A stretch of DNA of 64,000 bases from Clostridia bacterium. GTDB lineage: Bacteria; Bacillota; Clostridia; Christensenellales; UBA1242. A program made the translations under genes and the position numbers. The stretch covers positions 5,566-69,565 of the forward strand of contig JAFUJK010000050.1 in NCBI GenBank assembly GCA_017468205.1. Direction: 5' to 3'. How positions within the stretch are numbered: the stretch's first letter is position 1; each line of letters starts with the position of its first letter. This document shows positions 3,115 to 64,000 of this stretch, in pieces. Below the pieces are notes generated by a model that was not told the DNA's origin, searched no databases, and saw only the letters and a program-made list of their open reading frames with translations.

Positions 3115-4176
3115 TTGAGCGACAGAAAAAGGGATATTTTGCTTGGAGCGGTTGAAGATTATATTCAAAACGCAAGCCCTATTACAAGTAGCAATGTGAA
3201 AACTCGCTATTGTGCTGATTTGTCTACGGCAACTTTGCGAAATGAGTTAAATGCGCTGGAAGCAATGGGCTATCTTCGACAAATACATACATCGAGTGGG
3301 CGTGTTCCAACTGCGAAAGGATATAGGTATTTTGTTGATTCAATTATGGGCGATGTTCCTTTGGATAAAAAAATACTTGACGAAATTCACGGGATTTTCC
3401 AGAATCGAACAGTGTATCTTGGTGATATGGTAAATGAAATCGCGGATATTGTAAGCAAAGCAACTAACTATCCAACTGTCGTTATGCTGAAAGGTTTTGA
3501 AAAATTGTTAATCCAAAACGTTAAAATCATTCCTCTAATGACAGGGCAGGCATTGATATTGATTGAAACTAATAGTGGTATAATTAACAACTTTATGCCT
3601 GCAAATGCTGAAACGCCGATGCAAACGTACGTTGATGCAAGTAACTTTTTGACAACAACATTTAAAGAGCATACTGTGGCGGATATGATTCAAAACATCG
3701 AGAACTATCGCACGCAAATGGGACAGGATTTGCTTGATTTTAGTGGCTTATTTGATACAATGATTGACTCGTTGAAAAAACTTTGCGACAAAATCGCAAG
3801 TTCGGGTGGTTTTACCGCTCGTGGGCAATTGAGACTTTTGAATAGTCCTGAATATCAAGATTTGGATAAGGCAAAACGTGTTATAGATGTTTTGGATAAG
3901 CCAGAGGAACTTGGTCAAATCTTTGAAAATAAAAATATAAGCGAAGATGAAGTAAGTTTCAAAATTGGTTCAGAGATTCCAGTGGTCGACTTGCAGGAAT
4001 GTGCGGTTGCGTGTGCGGATTACACCGTTGATGGCGAAAGTATTGCAAGCATTGGGATTATTGGACCACAGCGTATGGATTATGCGAAAATTGCCAGTGC
4101 TCTGAAATTTGTAGTAGGAGAATTTGCGAATCTTAAAGCACTTGATTCTAAAAGAGGAGAAGATGATGAGCAATGA
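3115..4176 (+). CDS. hrcA: heat-inducible transcription repressor HrcA
   Basis: 353 aa. It is the first gene of an hrcA-grpE-dnaK-dnaJ block behind CIRCE, with a typical HrcA N-terminal wHTH (RKRDILLGAVEDYI...LRNELNALEAMGYL). TTG start; the exact start is uncertain. Confidence 0.9.
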   Translation: MSDRKRDILLGAVEDYIQNASPITSSNVKTRYCADLSTATLRNELNALEAMGYLRQIHTSSGRVPTAKGYRYFVDSIMGDVPLDKKILDEIHGIFQNRTVYLGDMVNEIADIVSKATNYPTVVMLKGFEKLLIQNVKIIPLMTGQALILIETNSGIINNFMPANAETPMQTYVDASNFLTTTFKEHTVADMIQNIENYRTQMGQDLLDFSGLFDTMIDSLKKLCDKIASSGGFTARGQLRLLNSPEYQDLDKAKRVIDVLDKPEELGQIFENKNISEDEVSFKIGSEIPVVDLQECAVACADYTVDGESIASIGIIGPQRMDYAKIASALKFVVGEFANLKALDSKRGEDDEQ

Positions 4177-4723
4177 AGAAAAATTAAATGATGAAGTCGT
4201 AAATGACGGCATCAATGTTGGTCAGCAAGATGACCTGGTAGCGGGGGATGAATGTGGAGACGATTTATCGCCACCACAAGATTTAAACTTAAAACTTCAA
4301 TTAGAAAAAGAAAACAGTATAGCATTAACTAAAATGCTTCAACAATTACAAGCGGATTTCTCAAATTATAGAAAGCGCAATGCTAATTTAGCAACGGAGT
4401 CAAGGCAAAGTGGAATTATGGAAGCAGTAAATGCTCTTTTGCCTGCATTTGATGCATTGACTTCTGCAAGCAAGCATATAACCGATGAGGAAACACTTAA
4501 AGGCTTGAAAATGATAGAACGTGAATTCTTAAATAATCTAAAATCACTCGAAATTACACAAATCGAAAGTGTGGGAACACAATTTGACCCTAATCTACAC
4601 AATGTTGTAGTTGCTGATGAAGTTGAGGGTGTTGAGAGTGGGCAGATTGTAGAGGAATATAAATCAGGCTTCATTAGCCCTAATGGTGTAGTCCGCGTGG
4701 CAATGGTTAAGATAGCAAAATAG
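4163..4723 (+). CDS. grpE: nucleotide exchange factor GrpE
   Basis: Sits between hrcA and dnaK. The DFSNYRKR motif and C-terminal beta domain are GrpE-like. AGAGGAGA lies at 4153-4160, with candidate ATG starts at 4163 and 4166. The track start at 4124 lies inside hrcA and is less likely. Confidence 0.9.
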   Translation: MMSNEEKLNDEVVNDGINVGQQDDLVAGDECGDDLSPPQDLNLKLQLEKENSIALTKMLQQLQADFSNYRKRNANLATESRQSGIMEAVNALLPAFDALTSASKHITDEETLKGLKMIEREFLNNLKSLEITQIESVGTQFDPNLHNVVVADEVEGVESGQIVEEYKSGFISPNGVVRVAMVKIAK

Positions 4724-4772
4724 TTTGGCTATTAGAAATATTTAATTATCAATTTTTAAGGAGAATTTTATT

Positions 4773-6593
4773 ATGGCAAAAATTATAGGTATTGACTTAG
4801 GAACAACTAACTCATGTGTGGCTGTTATGGAAGGTGGAGAGCCAGTTGTAATCCCTAACGCAGAAGGAATGCGCACAACTCCTAGTGTTGTGGCTTTCTC
4901 AAAAGACGGCGAACGTCTTGTAGGTCAGGTGGCAAAGCGTCAAGCTGTTGCAAATCCTGATAAAACCGTTTTGAGTATTAAGCGCGAAATGGGTACTGAT
5001 TACAAAGTTACTATTGACGAAAAACAATATTCACCACAAGAAATCAGTGCAATGATTTTGACAAAATTAAAGAATGATGCAGAGGCTTACTTGGGACAAA
5101 AAGTAACCCAAGCGGTTATTACAGTTCCAGCTTACTTTACTGACAGTCAACGTCAGGCAACAAAAGATGCTGGTAAAATCGCTGGTCTTGAAGTGCTTCG
5201 TATTATCAACGAACCAACCGCAGCAGCGCTTGCTTATGGTCTTGACAAGGCTGAAAATGCTAACCAAAAATTGTTAGTATTTGACCTTGGTGGTGGTACA
5301 TTTGACGTTTCTATTCTTGAAATTGGTGATGGCGTATTTGAAGTAATCGCTACAAAGGGTAACAACCGCCTTGGTGGTGATGACTTTGACCAACGTATTA
5401 TTGACTTGTTACAAAAAGAATTTAAAGCGCAAACTGGAATCGACCTTTCAGGCGACAAAACCGCTATGCAACGTTTGAAAGAAGCAGCGGAAAAGGCAAA
5501 AATTGACTTGTCTGCTTCTATGAAGACTACAATTTCACTTCCATTCATTTCAGCAGATTCAACAGGTCCAAAGCACCTTGAATATGAACTCTCTCGTGCT
5601 AAATTTGACGACATTACAAGTGATTTAGTTCAACAAACAATCGACCTTACATCTGCAGCACTTAAAGATGCAGGTTTAAGCAAAGACCAAGTGAACAAAA
5701 TCATAATGGTTGGTGGTAGCACGCGTATTCCAGCTGTTTGCGAAGCTGTAAAGAACTTTGCAGGCAAGGAAGGTTTTAAGGGTATTAACCCAGACGAATG
5801 TGTTGCAATAGGTGCTGCTATTCAAGGTGGTGTACTTGGCGGTGATGTTAAAGATGTATTATTGCTTGACGTAACTCCACTTTCACTTGGTATTGAAACA
5901 TTGGGTGGTGTGTTCACTCGTATTATCGACCGTAACACAACAATTCCTACAAAGAAATCCCAAGTATTCTCAACAGCTGCTGACAATCAGCCTGGCGTAG
6001 AAATTCACGTATTGCAAGGTGAACGCGAATTTGCAAAGGATAACAAAACTCTCGGCAGATTTAACTTGACAGACATTCCACCAGCGCCACGTGGTGTTCC
6101 TCAAATTGAGGTAACATTTGATATTGATGCTAATGGTATTGTAAACGTAAGCGCAAAGGACTTGGGAACAGGTAAGCAACAGCAAATCACAATTACTTCA
6201 AGTTCAAATATGAAAGAAGACGAAATTAACGAAGCAATCAAAAATGCGGAAAAGTATGCAAAAGAAGACAAAGAACGTCGCGAGATTATTGAGCAACGTA
6301 ACCAAGCTGATTCATTGATTTTAGGCTTGGAGAAAACCATGCGCGAAAGTGGCGATAAGATTAGCGAAGAAGACAAGAAAAAGTTGACCGAAGCAATCGA
6401 AAAGGCTAAGGAAGAGATTAAAGTTGACGACAAAGACAAGATTATGAAAGCAGTTGACGAGTTGTCAAAATCTAGCCAAGACATCATTACTAAACTTTAT
6501 CAAGCAAACCAAGCAGAGGCTAGTGCAAACGAAGACAAGAAAGACGAGCCAGAAGTAGAAGTTAAAGATGCCGATGCCAAAAAAGCAGACTAA
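4773..6593 (+). CDS. dnaK: molecular chaperone DnaK (Hsp70)
   Basis: [23 protein letters not shown] and [11 protein letters not shown]-like Hsp70 signatures; 606 aa. Confidence 0.98.
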
Positions 6594-6614
6594 ATAAAAT
6601 AAACGGAGTTTAAA

Positions 6615-7736
6615 TTGGCTCAAAATTATTATGATATTTTAGGGGTAGATAAAAATGCGAGTGCGGACGATATTAAGTCCGCTTATCGCAAGTTAGCAAA
6701 AAAATATCACCCGGATTTAAATAAGGATAATCCAGAAGCGGCAACAAAGTTTAAGGAAATTAACGAGGCATATGAAGTACTCAGTGACTCACAGAAACGC
6801 TCAAACTATGACCAATATGGGAGTGCGGATGGTCCAAACCCTAATGATTTCTTTGGTGGAAATCAAGGTGGAGGCGGATTTGGTTTTAACTTTGGTGATA
6901 TATTTGGTGATATATTCGGCGGTTTTGGAGGTGGTTCTGCCAAGACAGCCAATGCGGTACAAGGGCACGATATCAACGTAAAAGTAAATCTTACCTTTGA
7001 AGAAGCAGCGAAGGGCGTTAAGCGCGATATTACTTATATGTGTACACAAGAATGTACAGAGTGTAATGGAACAGGCGCAAAAGGTGGCACGGAATACACA
7101 ACCTGTCCTGATTGTCAGGGAACTGGACGTGTGCGCTATGCTCGCGATACTGTATTTGGTCGTATGGTTAATGAATCAATCTGTAAAAACTGTAACGGAA
7201 CTGGAAAAGCAATAAAAGAACGTTGCGGTACTTGTGGTGGTGCTGGTGTAAAACGAAGCCAACGCTCGACTACAATTAATATTCCAGCAGGTATTGACGA
7301 TGGGCAAACAGTTGTGGCTCGTGGTTATGGTGAAGCTGGAATACGCGGAGGTCCAGCGGGTGATTTGCTTATAACTGTTAATATTGCAAAGCATCAATTA
7401 TTAAAACGCGATGGATTTGATGTTCTTCTTGACGTTCCTGTACCTTTCACAATCGCTATGTTTGGTGGAAAGGTGATTATTCCAAGTTTGGAAGGAAAGC
7501 TTGAACTGAATATACCAGAGAATACGCAACCTGGAACTGTTCTTAAACTAAAAGGTAAAGGTATCAAGCAACTTAATAGAAGTGGCTATGGTGATATGCT
7601 TATTACGGTGAAAGTTGAATTGCCAAAAGTAAATGGTAGAGCCAAAAAAGACATTCAACTTTCCCTTGAAGAGCAATTCCCATTAGATAAGTTTGATAAG
7701 TTTAATAATTATAACAAATCAGTGAAATCACTTTAA
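6615..7736 (+). CDS. dnaJ: co-chaperone DnaJ
   Basis: J-domain with KYHPDLNK, a G/F-rich linker and four CxxCxGxG zinc-finger repeats. TTG start after an ACGGAG RBS. Confidence 0.97.
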
Positions 7737-7754
7737 TAGAAGTAATTTATATAA

Positions 7755-7780
7755 ACAGCTCCAATTTGGCGCTGTTTTTT
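7755..7780 (+). terminator. intrinsic terminator after dnaJ
   Basis: ACAGCTCC-AATTT-GGCGCTGT hairpin followed by TTTTTT. Confidence 0.6.
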
Positions 7781-7859
7781 GCATTTTTTTAAGGATTGGG
7801 TATTGACTTTTTGGGCTTTTTGTGATATACTTTTAACATAAAAAGGGAGGTTAGTTGTT

Positions 7860-8132
7860 ATGTCGGAAGGGAAGAAACAACAAAATTCTAGGGAAAGTTT
7901 GTTTGCTAGCATTTGGAAGTGTGGGCTTGGCAATATTGTCGAAACACTTGCACCTGTTGAGAAAGTAAAGAATTTTACTGATGGGTTTGGAAAGGGCGTT
8001 CCAGTTATAAGTTGGGTTTCTAAAAAATGCGACGAAGAATTGGATAGACGTAAACTTGAAGAACTTAAAAAAGAGATGCGAATGAGACGTCAAATAGAGC
8101 GCGAACTTGACCAAGAAGAAATGAGTAGATAA
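7860..8132 (+). CDS. hypothetical small protein with a charged C-terminal helix
   Basis: 90 aa. Own promoter (TTGACT..TGtGATATACT) and RBS AAAGGGAGG. A terminator hairpin at about 8143-8168 follows. No family recognised. Confidence 0.5.
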   Translation: MSEGKKQQNSRESLFASIWKCGLGNIVETLAPVEKVKNFTDGFGKGVPVISWVSKKCDEELDRRKLEELKKEMRMRRQIERELDQEEMSR

Positions 8133-8314
8133 TGAAGTCTTACAGACCTTGAAAAGGGTCTGTTTTTCTTTGAATATAACCGAACTCTGCGCAAAAATTT
8201 ATGCGTAACACCTTGCATAGTATGTGTTTTTTTGTAAAATTTTAATTAATATTGAGTTTGAAATTGCATTCCGCATTGTTTTATGATATAATGGAATAAA
8301 TAAAGGAGAAAACA

Positions 8315-9049
8315 ATGGAAAGACCAAGATTTTTTGTTGGTAGAGAATATAGATTTAATAATGAAATTATCATAAATGGCGACGAGTTTACGCATCTAAA
8401 TTCTGTCTTGCGCTTGCGTGCGGGGGAGCAAATTGATGTTTGTTTTAATGATGGCTGTGTCCATTTGTGTGAAATTGTAGCAGTTGAAAAGAAGCAAGCA
8501 ATTTGTAAAATTATCACAACTAATGAAGTTAAAAAGCGACATTCAAAAATTTCACTCTTTATTGCACTTACAAAAGCAGAGAGAATGGATTGGGCTGTGC
8601 AAAAGTGTACTGAACTTGGGATTGATGAAATAATCCCTTTCGCAAGTGAATTTTGTACAGTGAAAGATAAAGGTGGGAAAACTGATAGGTTAAAGCGAAT
8701 TGCACTTTCAGCAAGCAAGCAATCAGGTCGTGTGAATTTGCCTGAAATCTTGGACAACTTGACTTTTAATCAAGTGATTTTGAAATTGCAGGAATCCCCT
8801 CAAATTATTTTAGCCTATGAGAATGAAACGGCAAATGCAAAAGAGATTATTTCAAAATTAGATTGCTCAAAAGATACTGCCATAATCATAGGAAGCGAGG
8901 GTGGTTTTAGCGAAAAGGAAGTGCAAAATTTTGTTGATGCTGGCGCAAAAGTTGTTAGTTTAGGGGAAACAATTTTGCGTGCAGAAACTGCGTGTGTTGC
9001 GCTTGTAAGTGCTGTGAATTATGAATTTAATTTTTGGAAAAGGAAGTAA
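8315..9049 (+). CDS. rsmE: 16S rRNA (uracil1498-N3)-methyltransferase RsmE
   Basis: 244 aa. N-terminal PUA-like RFFV...G..I...GDEFTHLNSVLRLRAG pattern plus a SPOUT C-terminus. Lies next to mtaB, as yqeU-yqeV do in Bacillus. Confidence 0.85.
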   Translation: MERPRFFVGREYRFNNEIIINGDEFTHLNSVLRLRAGEQIDVCFNDGCVHLCEIVAVEKKQAICKIITTNEVKKRHSKISLFIALTKAERMDWAVQKCTELGIDEIIPFASEFCTVKDKGGKTDRLKRIALSASKQSGRVNLPEILDNLTFNQVILKLQESPQIILAYENETANAKEIISKLDCSKDTAIIIGSEGGFSEKEVQNFVDAGAKVVSLGETILRAETACVALVSAVNYEFNFWKRK

Positions 9050-9054
9050 TACGA

Positions 9055-10338
9055 ATGAAAATATCTATGCTTACTCTTGGCTGTAAAGTTAATCAGTATG
9101 AGGCTGATGAAATTGCGAGAGTTTTAAGAAAACGTGGACACGAGGTGTCAACAGAATTGGAACCAGCTGATTGTTTTATTTTGTCGACTTGTGCAGTTAC
9201 GAATGAGGCAGAGCGCAAATCTCGTCAAATGATTGCAAAACTCGAAAAAATATCACCTGATGCAAAAATTATTGTTTGTGGATGTGCAAGTCAAAACGAT
9301 TCAGTGAAGTTTGCAGACAAACCAAATGTTACCGTTGTTGTTGGTACTGGTGGAAAAATATGGATTCCTGACCTAGTGGAAGAAAAGGGAAATTATGTTG
9401 TTGAACCTGCGTATGATTATGAATATTTTGAGGAAAACACCGAGCGAGAACAAGTAAAGTTGAAACGTACGCGCGCTTATGTAAAAGTTCAAGATGGTTG
9501 CGATAACTATTGCTCTTATTGTCTAATTCCTTATTTGCGTGGCCGTAGTCGTAGTCGCGATTTGGAAAGTATCGTGGTTGAGGTTTTTAGGTTGGCAAAG
9601 ACACACCACGAGATTATTTTGACGGGTATCAATATTAGCGATTGGGGTAGAGATATCAAGTCTGATTTGGGGACCTTGCTATCATCGCTGTCAACAATCA
9701 ATGCGCGTATTAGATTGAGTTCGTTTGAAATGAATGTAATCACTTCGGATTTGATTAAAATAATGGTAAATATGCAGAATTTTTGCCCACATTTTCATTT
9801 GAGTATGCAGTCTGCTTGCGACCGAACTTTAAAGGCTATGAATCGCCATTATACAGTGAGCGAGTTTAAAAAGAAGGTAGAAATGCTTCGTGAGGCTTTT
9901 CCTCGTTGCGCTATAACTACTGATTTAATTGTTGGTTTCCCAGAAGAAACAGATGACGATTTCGCTGAAACTTTGAAAAATGTTGAGGAAATCGGTTTTG
10001 CTGATATGCATATTTTCCCATATTCTGTTAGAAAGGGAACAGTCGCTGCTGATATGGTGCAAGTAAACGGTGATGTGGTAAAAGAACGAGTACGTAAGAT
10101 TACTCAATTACGTAACAAAATGAAAACCGAATTTTTGAAGCGCGAACAGGGTATGATTTACGAAGTGCTGACCGAACAGGAAAAAGACGGATATGTCGTT
10201 GGGCATGCACGCAACTTTACAAAGGTTTATATTCCAAAAGAACAGATTGAGGCAAACACTCTTGCTATGGTAAGAATTGGCGAAGTTTATCAAGATGGTG
10301 TTTTGGGTGATGTTGTCGAAATTTGCAAGGAAGATTAG
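9055..10338 (+). CDS. mtaB: tRNA threonylcarbamoyladenosine methylthiotransferase MtaB (MiaB-like radical SAM)
   Basis: LGCKVNQYE N-terminal MTTase domain, CDNYCSYCLIP radical-SAM CxxxCxxC motif, and a TRAM-like C-terminus. The ATG at 9055 has the better RBS. Confidence 0.85.
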   Translation: MKISMLTLGCKVNQYEADEIARVLRKRGHEVSTELEPADCFILSTCAVTNEAERKSRQMIAKLEKISPDAKIIVCGCASQNDSVKFADKPNVTVVVGTGGKIWIPDLVEEKGNYVVEPAYDYEYFEENTEREQVKLKRTRAYVKVQDGCDNYCSYCLIPYLRGRSRSRDLESIVVEVFRLAKTHHEIILTGINISDWGRDIKSDLGTLLSSLSTINARIRLSSFEMNVITSDLIKIMVNMQNFCPHFHLSMQSACDRTLKAMNRHYTVSEFKKKVEMLREAFPRCAITTDLIVGFPEETDDDFAETLKNVEEIGFADMHIFPYSVRKGTVAADMVQVNGDVVKERVRKITQLRNKMKTEFLKREQGMIYEVLTEQEKDGYVVGHARNFTKVYIPKEQIEANTLAMVRIGEVYQDGVLGDVVEICKED

Positions 10339-11055: not shown

Positions 11056-11227
11056 GCAAAACACGTTATTATTTTGACATAATTACACGAAAAATCGAAT
11101 TTTGACGCTAATTTTTATAATATCAAGATTTACAAGAAGATTTCACTATTTTTTTAAATAAAAATGCGGTAAATTATTGTTATTTTGCACTATTTATGGT
11201 AAAATGTTATTTTAGTGAGGTATAAAT

Positions 11228-11950
11228 ATGGAAACAAATGCAGTTAGATTTATAAACGCATACAATCAAATAGACCAATCATTGCGTGCGATATACAACT
11301 TTAAACGTAATATAACTTTTAGTGATATGATTCGTAGGGCGGTATCTCTTAATAGCGTGGTACGTAAATATGAAGATAAACTTATTGACTATGCAAGATT
11401 GAGAAATGCAATCATTCACAATAGCAATGAAGATAAAATTATTGCGGAACCACACGATGAAGTGGTTGAAATTATGGAGAAAATTGCGGGATTAATTTCA
11501 CAACCGCCTTTGGCTCTTGAAACTGTTGCTACAAAAAACGTTTTGGTGCTTGATGGTAACACTTCAATTAAAAGCGCGCTTGAAACAATTTACAAAACAG
11601 GTTATAAAACTATCCCAGTTTTTGAAAACGAAGTGATTATGGGGGTTATAACCGCTAGCAGGATTGCAAATGTGCTTGGTGCCCAAATTGAGAAGGGAAG
11701 AAATATTGAGGAATTTGCTTCATTTACCGAAGTTGGAAGCGTAATTTCAGAGCAAGATGCGGGGTTGATTTTTACAATTTGCTCGCGAGAACTATCTGTG
11801 CAGGAAGCGCTTGATTTGTTCTTCCATAATCGCAAATTACTCGCGATAATTATTACTAAAAATGGCAACAATCTTGAACGCCCTTTGGGAATTATAACTG
11901 CTGCCGATATAATGGACTTAAATAAAGTCGTTGATGATTATGATGTATAA
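11228..11950 (+). CDS. CBS-pair protein with an N-terminal HEPN-like (Rx4H) domain
   Basis: 240 aa. Residues from about 95 to 240 contain two CBS motifs (VLVLDGNTSIKSALE..IPVF.. and ELSVQEALDLF..LAIIITKNG..GIITAADIM). The N-terminal ~95 aa are helical and carry YARLRNAIIHN, an R-x4-H motif typical of Swt1/Abi-type HEPN domains; that assignment is inference. Confidence 0.6.
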   Translation: METNAVRFINAYNQIDQSLRAIYNFKRNITFSDMIRRAVSLNSVVRKYEDKLIDYARLRNAIIHNSNEDKIIAEPHDEVVEIMEKIAGLISQPPLALETVATKNVLVLDGNTSIKSALETIYKTGYKTIPVFENEVIMGVITASRIANVLGAQIEKGRNIEEFASFTEVGSVISEQDAGLIFTICSRELSVQEALDLFFHNRKLLAIIITKNGNNLERPLGIITAADIMDLNKVVDDYDV

Positions 11951-60275: not shown

Positions 60276-60306
60276 AAAAAACCACCTCATTGAGGTGATT
60301 TTTTTA
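60274..60306. terminator. bidirectional terminator (TVP38 gene / PadR-like gene)
   Basis: AAAAAAAACCACCTCA-T-TGAGGTGATTTTTTT. Confidence 0.85.
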
Positions 60307-61791
60307 AACTCTAAAACGTTTTGTTGCAAAAATAATGATTCCAACAACCCAAGAGAGAAGTAAATCAATTATTGCAAGTAAAGGAATATACCACAATGTG
60401 AAAAATTCAATTTCCAGTGGGGCAGCCATACCCAGACACAAGCAAATTGCAACAACAAAAGTAATTAATACTATAGCTAACATAAATCTATAGAGTAAAT
60501 CCATTGCCCAGTTTATATCTTTTATGCGTGTTTTCCTATGAATATCTTTAAGAGTAAGCATCAACATAATACCAAAATATACAAGTCCTAGCACTCCATA
60601 TAATATGTAAAGGAAAGCGTGAGGTTCATAAATCATTCCTGCATCTTTTAGAATAAAGTATGATACTATCAATTCAATCAGAAAAATAAATGTCATAATG
60701 CCTGCACGGCACAAATTTAATTTATTTTTGTCTAGAAAATTTTTAGAATTAAAGCTTGATACATCTGTTTTTGTGTAAGATTTTACTGTAATATTATCCT
60801 GTTTTATGTGGGTGTAACCTACGGAATTTGTGGCTATTTTATGTACAGGTTCAGTTCGATTTGAAGCATTTGCTGGGTCTTTTCCCAAGTGATAACGCTT
60901 GTTAATTTCGTCCATAAGAGCTTGATTTTGGACAGAATAGAGGTCAGAAACACTCTTTTTAGGGCTGTTTTCTTGTTTGACTTTCTTATCAGAACGCAAT
61001 ATTTCAGCAATTTGTTTTGAATATTCGGACTGTTTTTTAGGAGTTTGAGGCTCTTGAGCAACTTGATTTTGTGCTGTTTGAGTGAAGTCTTGCTTGATAC
61101 TAACGGGTTCCTCAACCAAATCGGCATCTAAATCGCCTAAAATATCTTTATAGTTAATATCATCTTTGCTGGTTTTGTGGTCTTCAATTGTTTCTGCTTG
61201 CGTTTCTTGTGATAGGGTATCAGCAAAAAATAAATTTGATTGGCTTTCAGGTGTCCGTTCTTCTTGTGGGGTAGGGGAGAGGGCTTTTTCTTCGTTTAAT
61301 TCGTCAGGCTCAATATACTCACGCATTTGTTGAGTAAAACTTTGTTTTGTTGATATGTTTTCATTTGGGTTAAACTGCTCATACTCAACTTTATTTATAA
61401 TTATTTCAGGTACTTGTTCTTCTTTTGACAATTCGTCAACCGGTTCAAGATTAATAATAGGGTCAGGAATTTCCTTCATAACAGGCTCTACAAATGACTC
61501 TTTGCTTACAGGAGATGGAGTAGAAATTGGTTCGGACGATTTAGCAACTTCTTTTTTTCCAAGATTTGTAAGCGAATAATAGTGGCGACGACCTCCAATT
61601 GCGCTATCTTGCCAAAATGAAGAAATTAAGCCTTTTTTCTCCATACGCGACAAAGCACTATAAAGGCTAGGTTGCTTTATAGAAGTTTCACCATTGGTCA
61701 TATCTTCAATTTTTTTAATAATTTCGAGACCATATTGGTCACCATCTGCTAGCGCTTGTAGGATAAGTTTGTTAATTTGACTGCCATTCAT
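60304..61791 (-). CDS. membrane-tethered PadR-family transcriptional regulator
   Basis: N-terminal PadR wHTH (ILQALADGDQYGLEIIKKIE...KQPSLYSALSRMEKKGLISSFW...RRHYYSLT). A long acidic, Pro/Gln/Glu-rich linker follows, then about 4 C-terminal TM helices. RBS GGAGG. Confidence 0.75.
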   Translation of the reverse strand: MNGSQINKLILQALADGDQYGLEIIKKIEDMTNGETSIKQPSLYSALSRMEKKGLISSFWQDSAIGGRRHYYSLTNLGKKEVAKSSEPISTPSPVSKESFVEPVMKEIPDPIINLEPVDELSKEEQVPEIIINKVEYEQFNPNENISTKQSFTQQMREYIEPDELNEEKALSPTPQEERTPESQSNLFFADTLSQETQAETIEDHKTSKDDINYKDILGDLDADLVEEPVSIKQDFTQTAQNQVAQEPQTPKKQSEYSKQIAEILRSDKKVKQENSPKKSVSDLYSVQNQALMDEINKRYHLGKDPANASNRTEPVHKIATNSVGYTHIKQDNITVKSYTKTDVSSFNSKNFLDKNKLNLCRAGIMTFIFLIELIVSYFILKDAGMIYEPHAFLYILYGVLGLVYFGIMLMLTLKDIHRKTRIKDINWAMDLLYRFMLAIVLITFVVAICLCLGMAAPLEIEFFTLWYIPLLAIIDLLLSWVVGIIIFATKRFRV

Positions 61792-61979: not shown

Positions 61980-62651
61980 TTGGTTAACATTGATGTATTA
62001 ATTCGGACAAAACGCAGGTCAGTATCCATTTCAATCTCACAAAAAGGTGAAGTTATAATTAAAGCACCACAAAGTTGTTCTATGACGCAAATTCAATCAA
62101 TTGTTGACAAGAAGGAAAGCTGGATTTCACTACATAAACAACGTATTTTGGATAATCAAAATTTAAACAAAAACATTTTTAATTACAATGATATTCTTTT
62201 TTGTGGGCAAGTTTATCATATTTTATATGACGAAAGTGCGCGTAAGATTGAACTAAAAGATGATTATTGTATAGTGCCAGCAAAATTTACTGGTCAAGTA
62301 AGTAAGCAATTATCTAAATGGTTTAAAAATATAGGCACCTCAATTTTGTGGGGTAGGGTACAATATTTTAGCAATTTAATGCAACTAAATCCCAGCAAAG
62401 TTCGTTTGAGTAATGCAAAAGGGTGCTGGGGCTCGTGCAATAGCGCAGGGGTCATTTCGCTAAATTGGCGTCTTATAATGATGCCACACGATTTAATAGA
62501 CTATGTTGTGGTACACGAATTATCGCATTTGCTACAAATGAATCACTCTAATTTATTTTGGAATGTTGTAAAAAGTGTGTTACCAGATTATAAAAATCGC
62601 CGTGTATTACTTAAGAAAGGCGACTATTTATTGACTTTATATAGATATTAA
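61980..62651 (+). CDS. YgjP-like metal-dependent hydrolase (DUF45 / M48-like, HExxH)
   Basis: 223 aa. RRSVSISI.., WGSCNS.G.I.LNWRLI, and the zinc motif VVHELSHLLQMNHSNLFW. TTG start. Confidence 0.8.
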   Translation: MVNIDVLIRTKRRSVSISISQKGEVIIKAPQSCSMTQIQSIVDKKESWISLHKQRILDNQNLNKNIFNYNDILFCGQVYHILYDESARKIELKDDYCIVPAKFTGQVSKQLSKWFKNIGTSILWGRVQYFSNLMQLNPSKVRLSNAKGCWGSCNSAGVISLNWRLIMMPHDLIDYVVVHELSHLLQMNHSNLFWNVVKSVLPDYKNRRVLLKKGDYLLTLYRY

Positions 62652-62686
62652 TTAGGGGATAGATTTTTAAAATCATTTTCAATAAC

Positions 62687-62714
62687 TATGCGTAAAAGAC
62701 AAGTTTTACGCATA
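62687..62714. repeat. perfect 11-bp-arm palindrome TATGCGTAAAA-N6-TTTTACGCATA
   Basis: Read directly. A third exact copy of TTTTACGCATA lies at 63081-63091, just upstream of the recombinase promoter. Confidence 0.9.
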
Positions 62715-62833
62715 ATTAATAACAAAAAACAAGCAAATTTAACTAAATTATAATTTGTCTTATTCAATTCAATTATAATAAATTAGTTTGTTTGAAATCA
62801 ACTCTCTATAAACTCATTTTAAAATTGTTTTAA

Positions 62834-62986
62834 ACAGAGTTAATTTAAAATGCGTTCAGACAGATTATTTTATTTTTAATGAACAGATGTCCATTTATTT
62901 AAATTGATTTATACAGAGTCATTTCAATTTATCTAAAATTTTTAATACTTTAATACTATGCGAAATTAAAATGCGTTGACACAGAG
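62834..62986 (+). repeat. array of short direct repeats (ACAGAG/ACAGAT x5; TTAAAATGCGTT x2)
   Basis: ACAGA(G/T) occurs at 62834, 62860, 62883, 62913 and 62981. The 12-mer TTAAAATGCGTT occurs at 62845-62856 and 62966-62977, each time followed by xA(G/C)ACAGA. All lie in a non-coding AT-rich spacer. Confidence 0.8.
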
Positions 62987-63105
62987 TGTTTTAAATTTGC
63001 ATATGTCAAAAATGACAATTTTAATCAAAATCAAAATCAATTTCAATCGTCAAAAATTGAGCAAGTCTCACATCAAAAAATTTTACGCATACTTTGCAGA
63101 AACAT

Positions 63106-63134
63106 TTTACAATCAAAATCAAATTTGCTATAAT
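63106..63134 (+). promoter_or_regulatory. promoter of the tyrosine recombinase gene
   Basis: TTTACA, 17 nt, TGcTATAAT (extended -10). The spacer contains AATCAAAATCAAA, which also occurs at 63023-63035. Confidence 0.55.
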
Positions 63135-63155
63135 CATTTGTAGAGGTATTTTACA

Positions 63156-64000
63156 ATGTCAGAAAAATATTATGTACAACGAAACGATAAAAATACAATG
63201 CGCTTGCGTGAACTTAAACAAGAACTACCCTATTTTTGTAGCGAGTTTTTCGTAGGAGTTGAGAACCAGACAACGCCTCTAACACGCTTAAACTATGCGT
63301 ATGATTTGCGCATATTTTTCCATTATCTGTGTACCCAGTTACCCCAATTTTCGGGTCGCAATCCAAAGCAAATTTCTGTGATGGACTTAAATATGATTGA
63401 GGCTCAACAGATTGAGAACTTTCTTGAATATCTAAATATGTATGAGTTCAATGGAAAGACTTATCACAATAATGAGAAAGCGAAATCTCGTAAACTCTCC
63501 ACATTACGCTCATTTTTTAGTTATTACTTTAAGAAAGAGCGTATTGATAGAAATGTTACAGAGAAAGTAGATTTACCTAAATTGCACGAGAAAAACATAG
63601 TTCGTCTTGAAGTAAATGAGATGGTAGATTTACTTGATATGGCTGAAACTGGTTATGCGCTCTCCCCTACCCAACAAGCTTTTCATAGGCATACTGACTC
63701 ACGTGATTATGCAATTTTAGCGCTTTTATTGGGAACTGGAATACGTGTGAGCGAGTGCGTTGGACTTGATGTTGAGGATATTGATTTTAACATAAATGGT
63801 TTTAAGGTCATTCGTAAAGGCGGAGCGCAGGTTGTGCTGTATTTCTCTGATGAAGTCGCCACGGCTTTGAGAAAATATTTAGAAGACCGTGCAGAGATTG
63901 CAGGACTTGACCCAAATGAGCATGCTTTGTTCTTGTCGCTACAAAAACGTCGTATTTCAACGCGTGCTGTGCAGAACCTTGTCAAAAAATATAGTAATCT
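63156..64000 (+). CDS. tyrosine site-specific recombinase, Xer family (XerS-like), 3'-truncated by the window end
   Basis: ATG at 63156 after GAGG. The frame is open to the window end (checked). An N-terminal SAM-like core-binding domain (LTRLNYAYDLRIFFHYL, KLSTLRSFFSYY) is followed by the catalytic-domain start RDYAILALLLGTGIRVSECVGL..RKGG. By eye it parallels streptococcal XerS ([22 protein letters not shown]..RKGG). It is absent from the ORF track because of the window edge. Confidence 0.8.
   Translation, partial: MSEKYYVQRNDKNTMRLRELKQELPYFCSEFFVGVENQTTPLTRLNYAYDLRIFFHYLCTQLPQFSGRNPKQISVMDLNMIEAQQIENFLEYLNMYEFNGKTYHNNEKAKSRKLSTLRSFFSYYFKKERIDRNVTEKVDLPKLHEKNIVRLEVNEMVDLLDMAETGYALSPTQQAFHRHTDSRDYAILALLLGTGIRVSECVGLDVEDIDFNINGFKVIRKGGAQVVLYFSDEVATALRKYLEDRAEIAGLDPNEHALFLSLQKRRISTRAVQNLVKKYSN

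Follow-up and report, generated by a model that had tools for sequence, protein, structure and literature searches.

A palindromic dif-type site upstream of a XerS-like recombinase gene points to a terminus-located Xer module in Clostridia

Xer systems that operate with a single recombinase appear in reviews and later papers under four names, XerS, XerH, XerL and XerA, and their described hosts are the streptococci and lactococci, the epsilonproteobacteria, the Legionellales and the archaea, respectively. XerS, which acts at the difSL site (Le Bourgeois et al. 2007, PMC1914069; Nolivos et al. 2010, PMC2965235), is treated as specific to the Streptococcaceae and as being of unknown origin. Here we analyzed a stretch of 64,000 nucleotides from a Clostridia bacterium (positions 5,566 to 69,565 of contig JAFUJK010000050.1, assembly GCA_017468205.1; hereafter the window), in which a spacer at 62652-63155 separates an open reading frame (ORF) for a YgjP-like metallopeptidase, located directly upstream on the + strand (61980-62651), from a tyrosine recombinase ORF whose ATG lies at 63156. 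The 5′ 845 nt of this XerS-like recombinase gene occupy 63156-64000 on the + strand, where the gene runs off the window; the full gene would end at approximately 64202. The initial annotation of this DNA had proposed that the spacer holds a dif site upstream of a XerS-like recombinase, and this proposal is supported by evidence that is comparative throughout, namely by sequence conservation, by a switch in skew and gene strand, and by the junctions of a microvirus integrated in a relative (L086). We estimate at roughly 80% the probability that a 28-bp palindrome within the spacer is the recombination site of the adjacent recombinase, the two together forming a putative XerS-type Xer/dif module located at the replication terminus.

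The locus shares several properties with XerS/difSL. Both have a single recombinase of about 350 residues (348 here, with the R-K-H-R-H-Y residues intact), a recombinase gene directly downstream of the site, a position of the module at a strand and skew switch, and arms whose inner A and T tracts flank the centre. The xerS locus of S. suis (L210) has the same layout, with difSL (ATCTTTCCGAAAAACTATAATTTTCTTGAAA) located about 55 bp upstream of xerS. Conversely, difSL is 31 bp in length, its arms (TTTCCGAAAA and TTTTCTTGAAA) are unequal and its centre is longer, whereas the site described here comprises 28 bp in an 11-6-11 arrangement with identical arms; the protein, at 201 bits, stays below the XerS cut-off of 267 bits and shows 29% identity with pneumococcal XerS; and the module occurs in Clostridia rather than in Streptococcaceae. 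Of the repeats listed by the initial annotation, the arm repeat alone is shown to be the core of the site, which is not difSL and has 28 symmetric bp in place of 31.

The remaining Xer systems resemble the locus in fewer respects or in different ones. In the XerL/dif system of the Legionellales (PMC9765430), a single recombinase acts on a dif whose arms are long uninterrupted inverted repeats, and a mobile element integrating at the site revealed it, as is the case here; in contrast, xerL of L. pneumophila lies more than 400 kb from dif, whereas site and gene are adjacent in the window, and the hosts are Proteobacteria. This likeness is drawn from features of the system. XerH/difH of Helicobacter and Campylobacter likewise combines a single recombinase (about 355-362 residues) with a site near its gene and fairly symmetric arms, but the site sequence differs and the protein similarity is weak. 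XerA of the archaea is a single recombinase acting on a 28-bp dif; it is shorter (about 280-290 residues), belongs to archaeal hosts and is reported to act without FtsK. The canonical XerC/XerD system has a 28-bp 11-6-11 site at the terminus but uses two paralogous recombinases on non-identical arms, unlike the identical arms found here, and the site in the window has 16 mismatches over 28 positions to the dif of B. subtilis.

The core site occupies 62687-62714 and reads TATGCGTAAAA-GACAAG-TTTTACGCATA, a perfect 11-6-11 palindrome that is unique in the window, with the left arm at 62687-62697, the centre GACAAG at 62698-62703 and the right arm at 62704-62714. Its symmetry reaches outward to AACTATGCGTAAAA and TTTTACGCATAATT (62684-62717), and the recombinase gene begins 442 bp downstream of it. 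A site scan found no second full site in the window or in locus L001, which extends the sequence 10 kb beyond position 64000 and brings the stitched total to 74.2 kb. The arm sequence TTTTACGCATA occurs at 62704 and 63081 and as its reverse complement at 62687, with no further copies in 64 kb; the palindrome and the third copy at 63081-63091, both picked out by the initial annotation, are thus confirmed as its sole occurrences. When the spacer was simulated 2000 times with a first-order Markov model, 0.35% of the simulated sequences contained a perfect 11-6-11 palindrome. Furthermore, an alignment of the spacer with those of relatives, suggested earlier as a way to find a conserved core of 28-31 bp, returned the 28-bp palindrome as the most conserved block, and the palindrome is kept beside the homologous gene.

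To place the site among its relatives, one genome per species was scanned with the family alignment, which yielded 80 loci with protein identities of 51-81% from Christensenellales, Lachnospiraceae (Roseburia, Coprococcus, Blautia), Caldicoprobacterales and other Clostridia; counts over these loci are not phylogenetically independent. One high-scoring site was present in 54 of the 80 loci, and three closer relatives fetched separately bring the number to 57. The sites in these 57 loci follow the pattern TAT[GT]CG[CT][AT]AAA-N6-TTT[AT][AG]CG[AC]ATA and lie upstream of the gene in every locus except L079, at distances from 20 bp to 9 kb; four further loci have palindromic variants that differ in the outer bases. 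Where the distance amounts to kilobases, ordinary chromosomal genes stand between the site and the recombinase gene. Arm positions 5 and 9-11 are invariant across sites, and the six central bases follow the consensus N-A-C-A-R-S. At position 4 the two arms co-vary: 39 sites have T:A, 9 have G:C and 6 are mixed, and the fourth combination, T with C, was seen in no site. Compensatory change along the entire arm was considered as well and dropped, since position 4 alone co-varies and position 7 is a pyrimidine on both sides.

In a previous study of dif sites (PMC9765430), the properties applied were a length of about 28-31 bp, AT-richness, partial palindromy, a non-coding position, uniqueness, proximity to the terminus and conservation despite varying flanks. 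The site described here has 28 bp, is intergenic, occurs once in 64 kb, lies at a skew switch and has neighbours that differ across the approximately 57 loci.

As a separate observation, the gene is preceded in three loci by a pair of dif-like sites spaced by 0.3-1.9 kb, namely in L077 (7936 and 9802), L074 (8801 and 9886) and L032 (558 and 898). In L077, solely small ORFs of unassigned function lie between the two sites. Such pairs could represent small dif-flanked modules or the remnants of integrated elements.

The locus looks like a replication terminus. Genes in 1-56000 lie almost all on the + strand, with a GC skew of about +0.2, and the skew is negative beyond the recombinase. In L001, a small acetyltransferase-like gene follows the recombinase gene, then miaA, mutL, mutS and miaB on the opposite strand, and then a gene for a penicillin-binding protein (PBP). 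The cumulative GC skew of the stitched 74.2 kb reaches its maximum at about 65000, approximately 2 kb from the palindrome. In the 44 related loci whose sequence reaches 4 kb or more to either side of the site, skew was positive to the left and negative to the right in 32 and showed the reverse in one. The terminus placement anticipated by the initial annotation is supported by the cumulative peak, by the strand switch after the recombinase and by the recurrent change of sign in the relatives. The motif GAAGAAG, reported in the title of PMC3384302 as the FtsK-orienting polar sequence (KOPS) of Lactococcus, is distributed 14:0 (+ : - strand) to the left of the site (1-62686) and 3:2 to its right, where only 11 kb are available, and this distribution is confounded with the coding strand.

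Microviruses provide evidence of recombination at the site itself. In L086, whose recombinase is 89% identical and whose flanks are syntenic, a complete 5.5-kb microvirus prophage (4039-9542) is located exactly at the position of the palindrome, with genes for a major capsid protein, a scaffold, a DNA pilot protein, a replication initiator, a DNA-binding protein and a holin-like protein. Its attL reads TATGCGCAAAA-GACAAG-TTATGTGTATA and its attR TCTGCGTAAAA-GACAAG-TTTTGCGCATA, so that the host arms lie outside and the virus arms inside, around an identical GACAAG centre. Arms swapped around an identical centre are what a site-specific exchange inside that centre or at its borders is expected to yield, as in mobile elements that integrate by means of their host's Xer recombinase (IMEX). 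The prophage was also found in L087, a second sample, in which the attR junction recurs. A second complete microvirus prophage, at 66-5331 of L017, is situated between a dif-like site and the recombinase, and its capsid protein is 49% identical to that of L086; it likewise has genes for capsid, scaffold, pilot, replication and DNA-binding proteins. It is thus in the relatives L086 and L017, and not in the window, that the site appears as an IMEX target. Judging from these junctions, integrase-less microviruses do integrate via this site in an IMEX-like manner in the relatives.

Integrase-less microviruses at dif-type sites, with dif-like flanks, are also known from IMEX proviruses of Bacteroidetes and from an enterobacterial gokushovirus. 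Those proviruses reportedly target dif sites of the XerC/XerD type; the target here differs in that it is symmetric and belongs to a XerS-like enzyme of Clostridia. The taxa for which an abstract from 2022 lists microvirus prophages are limited to Bacteroidales, Hyphomicrobiales and Enterobacteriaceae. Among 80 IMG/VR microviruses with VP1 identities of 43-49%, the site was no more common than in shuffled controls.

Beyond the microviruses, at least 120 IMG/VR viral contigs (L090-L209) contain an exact match to TATKCGYWAAA-N6-TTTWRCGMATA, far above chance. Those examined are mostly fragments of tailed phages with terminase or portal genes; a tyrosine recombinase gene is never found within 1.5 kb of the site, and the centres differ from those of the host sites (GTGTAG, for example, occurs 22 times). 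These viral sites could mimic attP or, alternatively, serve to resolve phage dimers by means of a host Xer enzyme.

The presence of prophages at the site raises the question of whether the locus is instead a domesticated or selfish integration module that serves mainly as a landing pad for integrase-less elements, without resolving dimers. Microvirus prophages at the site in two genomes and the palindromic pattern in so many viral contigs would suit such a role. Nevertheless, the site is consistently placed at the skew switch, is kept across many species with one copy per fetched locus, and mirrors the layout of xerS-difSL, for which dimer resolution has been demonstrated experimentally; we therefore consider the landing-pad explanation improbable.

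The region immediately upstream of the recombinase gene contains a further copy of the arm. A strong promoter is predicted on the + strand at 63106-63134 (TTTACA, 17 nt, TATAAT, with a TG extension, TGcTATAAT), matching the consensus at 11 of 12 positions, and its hexamers are kept in four of five aligned relatives; a predicted ribosome-binding site, AGAGG (63142-63146, + strand), lies 9 nt before the ATG, and its GAGG is conserved in the alignment. The isolated half-site at 63081-63091 (+ strand) has the exact sequence of the right arm, TTTTACGCATA; it is situated 75 bp ahead of the ATG, and 15 bp separate its end from the -35 hexamer. In L086, the half-site at the corresponding place reads TTTTGCGCATA, in agreement with the arm variant of that same genome. 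A half-site was present within 200 bp upstream of the ATG in 16 of the 57 loci, against a background of about 0.02 per 200 bp (approximately 14-fold enrichment), mostly between -52 and -81. The autoregulatory sites suggested by the initial annotation are hence supported as candidates in this form, with enrichment near the promoter and an arm variant that is tracked in each genome. It is a reasonable inference from these patterns that the half-site is a candidate binding site for autoregulation of the recombinase.

These promoter-proximal features bear on a simpler explanation, in which the palindrome acts only as an operator, for the recombinase or for another regulator, and is not a place of recombination. 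A palindrome ahead of a gene is typical of an operator, the extra half-site is at the promoter, and in some loci the full site is just 20-60 bp from the ATG. In other genomes, however, the site is located 1-9 kb from the gene with unrelated genes between them, which is too far for an operator; the microvirus in L086 occupies precisely this site, and its swapped arms with an unchanged centre are the product of site-specific recombination; and the site tracks the skew switch. We regard a purely regulatory function as very unlikely.

The recombinase itself is, judged by profile scores, a Xer-type enzyme nearest to XerS, below the level of a XerS equivalog. The full protein has 348 residues, and a full-length protein with 100% identity (P0001) is encoded on several metagenomic contigs. 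Against NCBIfam profiles it scored 201 bits for XerS (NF003462, cut-off 267), 160 for XerC, 160 for XerA and 151 for XerD; XerS is the best-scoring family, and its profile match runs from end to end of the recombinase. Three other members of the family scored 169-193 bits against NF003462. The resemblance to XerS noted at first sight thus holds as the best family match but falls short of the equivalog cut-off. The identity to pneumococcal XerS (P0124) extends over 354 residues, and the catalytic residues R197, K221, H292, R295, H318 and Y328 are invariant in an alignment of 17 homologues. An AlphaFold model of the recombinase (predicted local distance difference test score, pLDDT, 84.5) had its best fold matches in XerA, IntI4, XerH and XerD, and XerA is the closest solved structure by both sequence and fold. 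The sequence match to XerH is weak (phmmer E = 1.7e-6) and confined to the catalytic domain. Source annotations of proteins in this family read only "tyrosine-type recombinase/integrase".

It is conceivable that the palindrome is a true recombination site but serves another enzyme, such as XerC/XerD encoded elsewhere, the adjacent recombinase being otherwise employed. The 11-6-11 layout is that of canonical dif, and the search for Xer proteins reached only 74.2 kb of this genome. Against this stand the identical arms, which fit one recombinase rather than two paralogues, the 16 of 28 mismatches to B. subtilis dif, the linkage of site and gene in more than 50 genomes, and the promoter half-site, which follows the arm sequence of each genome. 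Service to a different enzyme accordingly has a very low probability in our assessment. An att or arm region of a prophage or an integrative and conjugative element (ICE) lying beyond position 64000, with the recombinase as its integrase, had been offered by the initial annotation as an alternative; a tyrosine recombinase gene with a site just ahead of it does resemble an integration module, as the XerS authors said of xerS-difSL, but for this locus such an origin is refuted, given that the acetyltransferase, miaA, mutL, mutS, miaB and PBP genes follow on the extended contig with no mobile-element genes in the 10 kb past the window, that this synteny is shared with relatives whose recombinases are 84-89% identical, and that the module is kept at skew switches across orders of Clostridia.

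Several observations nonetheless weigh against the interpretation of the palindrome and its neighbouring gene as a terminus-located Xer/dif module. The terminus evidence covers no more than 74 kb in this genome and 21 kb per related locus, and GC skew is confounded with gene strand. The search for XerC/XerD and a canonical dif covered the stitched 74.2 kb only; neither was there, and within that sequence no second tyrosine recombinase and no B. subtilis-type dif was found. About 20 of the 80 loci had no recognizable site in the fetched DNA, several of them with too little upstream sequence; for these loci (L009, L011, L022, L026, L030, L031 and about 14 more), relaxed arms and centres of 5-9 bp recovered none, and their sites may be distant from the gene or may have diverged. 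Arm position 7 is a pyrimidine in both arms and thus not strictly complementary, so many sites are near-palindromes rather than perfect ones. Regarding the microviruses, the left junction in L017 lies 65 bp from the contig end, with no host flank visible, and an exact pattern search of viral contigs found no free phage genome with the predicted attP.

If the module functions in the manner of characterized Xer systems, its physiological role would be the resolution of chromosome dimers. One recombinase monomer would bind each identical 11-bp arm, and two sites on a dimeric chromosome would synapse as a tetramer. Tyr328 would cleave at the borders of the 6-bp centre GACAAG, the sole asymmetric part and hence the presumptive source of polarity, and two sequential strand exchanges via a Holliday junction would convert the dimer to monomers. 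An FtsK-type septal translocase probably triggers the reaction. In addition, a recombinase monomer probably binds the extra half-site upstream of the -35 hexamer, thereby regulating its own gene.

In the literature, we found no description of the module or of its arm sequence in Clostridia, although sequences given only in figures are not searchable. A large study of dif prediction covers only Clostridium and Desulfitobacterium among the Clostridia, and the sites predicted for both are of the canonical type, unlike the site described here. We propose, tentatively and with slightly less than even confidence, that much of the Clostridia, including Christensenellales, Lachnospiraceae and others, may possess an unnamed single-recombinase Xer system for dimer resolution, a sister family of XerS with the site TATKCGYWAAA-NACARS-TTTWRCGMATA. 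If so, the system would bear on where XerS/difSL came from, as a plausible relative or source, and would fill a gap in how dominant gut Clostridia keep their chromosomes monomeric. Clostridiales are the predicted gut hosts of gokushovirus-type microviruses, and the site would offer these viruses an attachment site for lysogenizing them; more broadly, it would constitute an integrase-free route to lysogeny in Firmicutes for gut microviruses and perhaps for many tailed phages. The site would also allow the replication terminus to be recognized by sequence where metagenome-assembled genomes are fragmented, and a symmetric site with an asymmetric 6-bp centre is a possible compact recombination tool.

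The spacer surrounding the site measures 504 bp, with a GC content of 22.4% compared to 35.5% for the whole window. It had been described as unusually long, a view that does not stand, as other gaps of about 500-540 bp between ORFs exist in the window and its length is unexceptional. The spacer had no match in Rfam at E ≤ 1, and no intrinsic terminators were found in it. The other repeats reported by the initial annotation were mostly recovered as stated. TTAAAATGCGTT is present at 62845 and 62966, the only two copies in the window, with the claimed spacing of 121 bp. The five copies of ACAGA[GT] are all on the + strand (62834, 62860, 62883, 62913 and 62981), compared to a simulated mean of 0.23, and no simulation reached five. 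AATCAAAATCAAA occurs twice, at 63023 and 63111. Both short palindromes exist, TGTCAAAAATGACA at 63004-63017 and AAATTATAATTT at 62745-62756, the latter one position to the left of the 62746-62757 first given. Sorted by conservation, the arm repeat is conserved class-wide, TTAAAATGCGTT and ACAGA[GT] are conserved in close relatives only, and AATCAAAATCAAA and the two short palindromes show no conservation and look incidental.

The repeats TTAAAATGCGTT and ACAGA[GT] proved to be the two ends of one 22-bp motif, TTTAAAAYGCGYTNASACAGAG, which is present in four to five copies in the spacer and nowhere else in 64 kb. Two copies form a head-to-head pair (62802-62823 on the - strand and 62818-62839 on the + strand) with a central TTTAAA common to both, an arrangement also found in L004, L084, L086 and L088. 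The best copy, TTTAAAATGCGTTCAGACAGAT (62844-62865, + strand), has one mismatch and falls within the second most conserved block of the spacer alignment; a degenerate copy, ATTTAAATTGATTTATACAGAG, lies at 62897-62918 on the + strand (repeat family D1), and a copy with one mismatch, ATTAAAATGCGTTGACACAGAG, at 62965-62986 on the + strand. The motif occurs near the site, sometimes on both sides of it, in the four closest relatives only. It was absent from the 80 distant loci, and a search for repeat families around the site in five distant loci found nothing comparable; a metagenome scan returned two chance matches in unrelated DNA of 41% and 50% GC. In this genus, the 22-bp array around the site may bind an accessory or terminus-organizing protein. 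The best copy is followed by an imperfect palindrome, AATGAACAGATGTCCATT (62878-62895), for which the consensus of the relatives is AATGAnCAnnTGnTCATT and which is conserved in all five aligned spacers. A LexA box at 62878-62895 was considered and rejected; the likeness to GAAC-N4-GTTC is confined to the window and is missing in the relatives.

The neighbourhood offers three further observations. In L084, L086 and L088 (approximately 11124-11780), lexA lies downstream of the recombinase gene on the same strand, at the place taken by the acetyltransferase-like gene in the genome of the window; a link between Xer expression and the SOS response through this neighbour is possible. The mismatch-repair gene mutS is split into two ORFs (264 and 596 residues) in L001 (14299-16911) and is a single intact gene of 870 residues in L002 (14296-16908); the two loci come from different samples of the same organism, and the split could be a frameshift variant or an assembly error. 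Finally, the - strand at 60304-61791 encodes a protein of 495 residues in which a long linker of low complexity follows a PadR winged-helix domain at the N-terminus and the C-terminal region is hydrophobic. In every close relative its gene keeps this place, two genes upstream of the site; the protein may be a membrane-anchored transcription factor.

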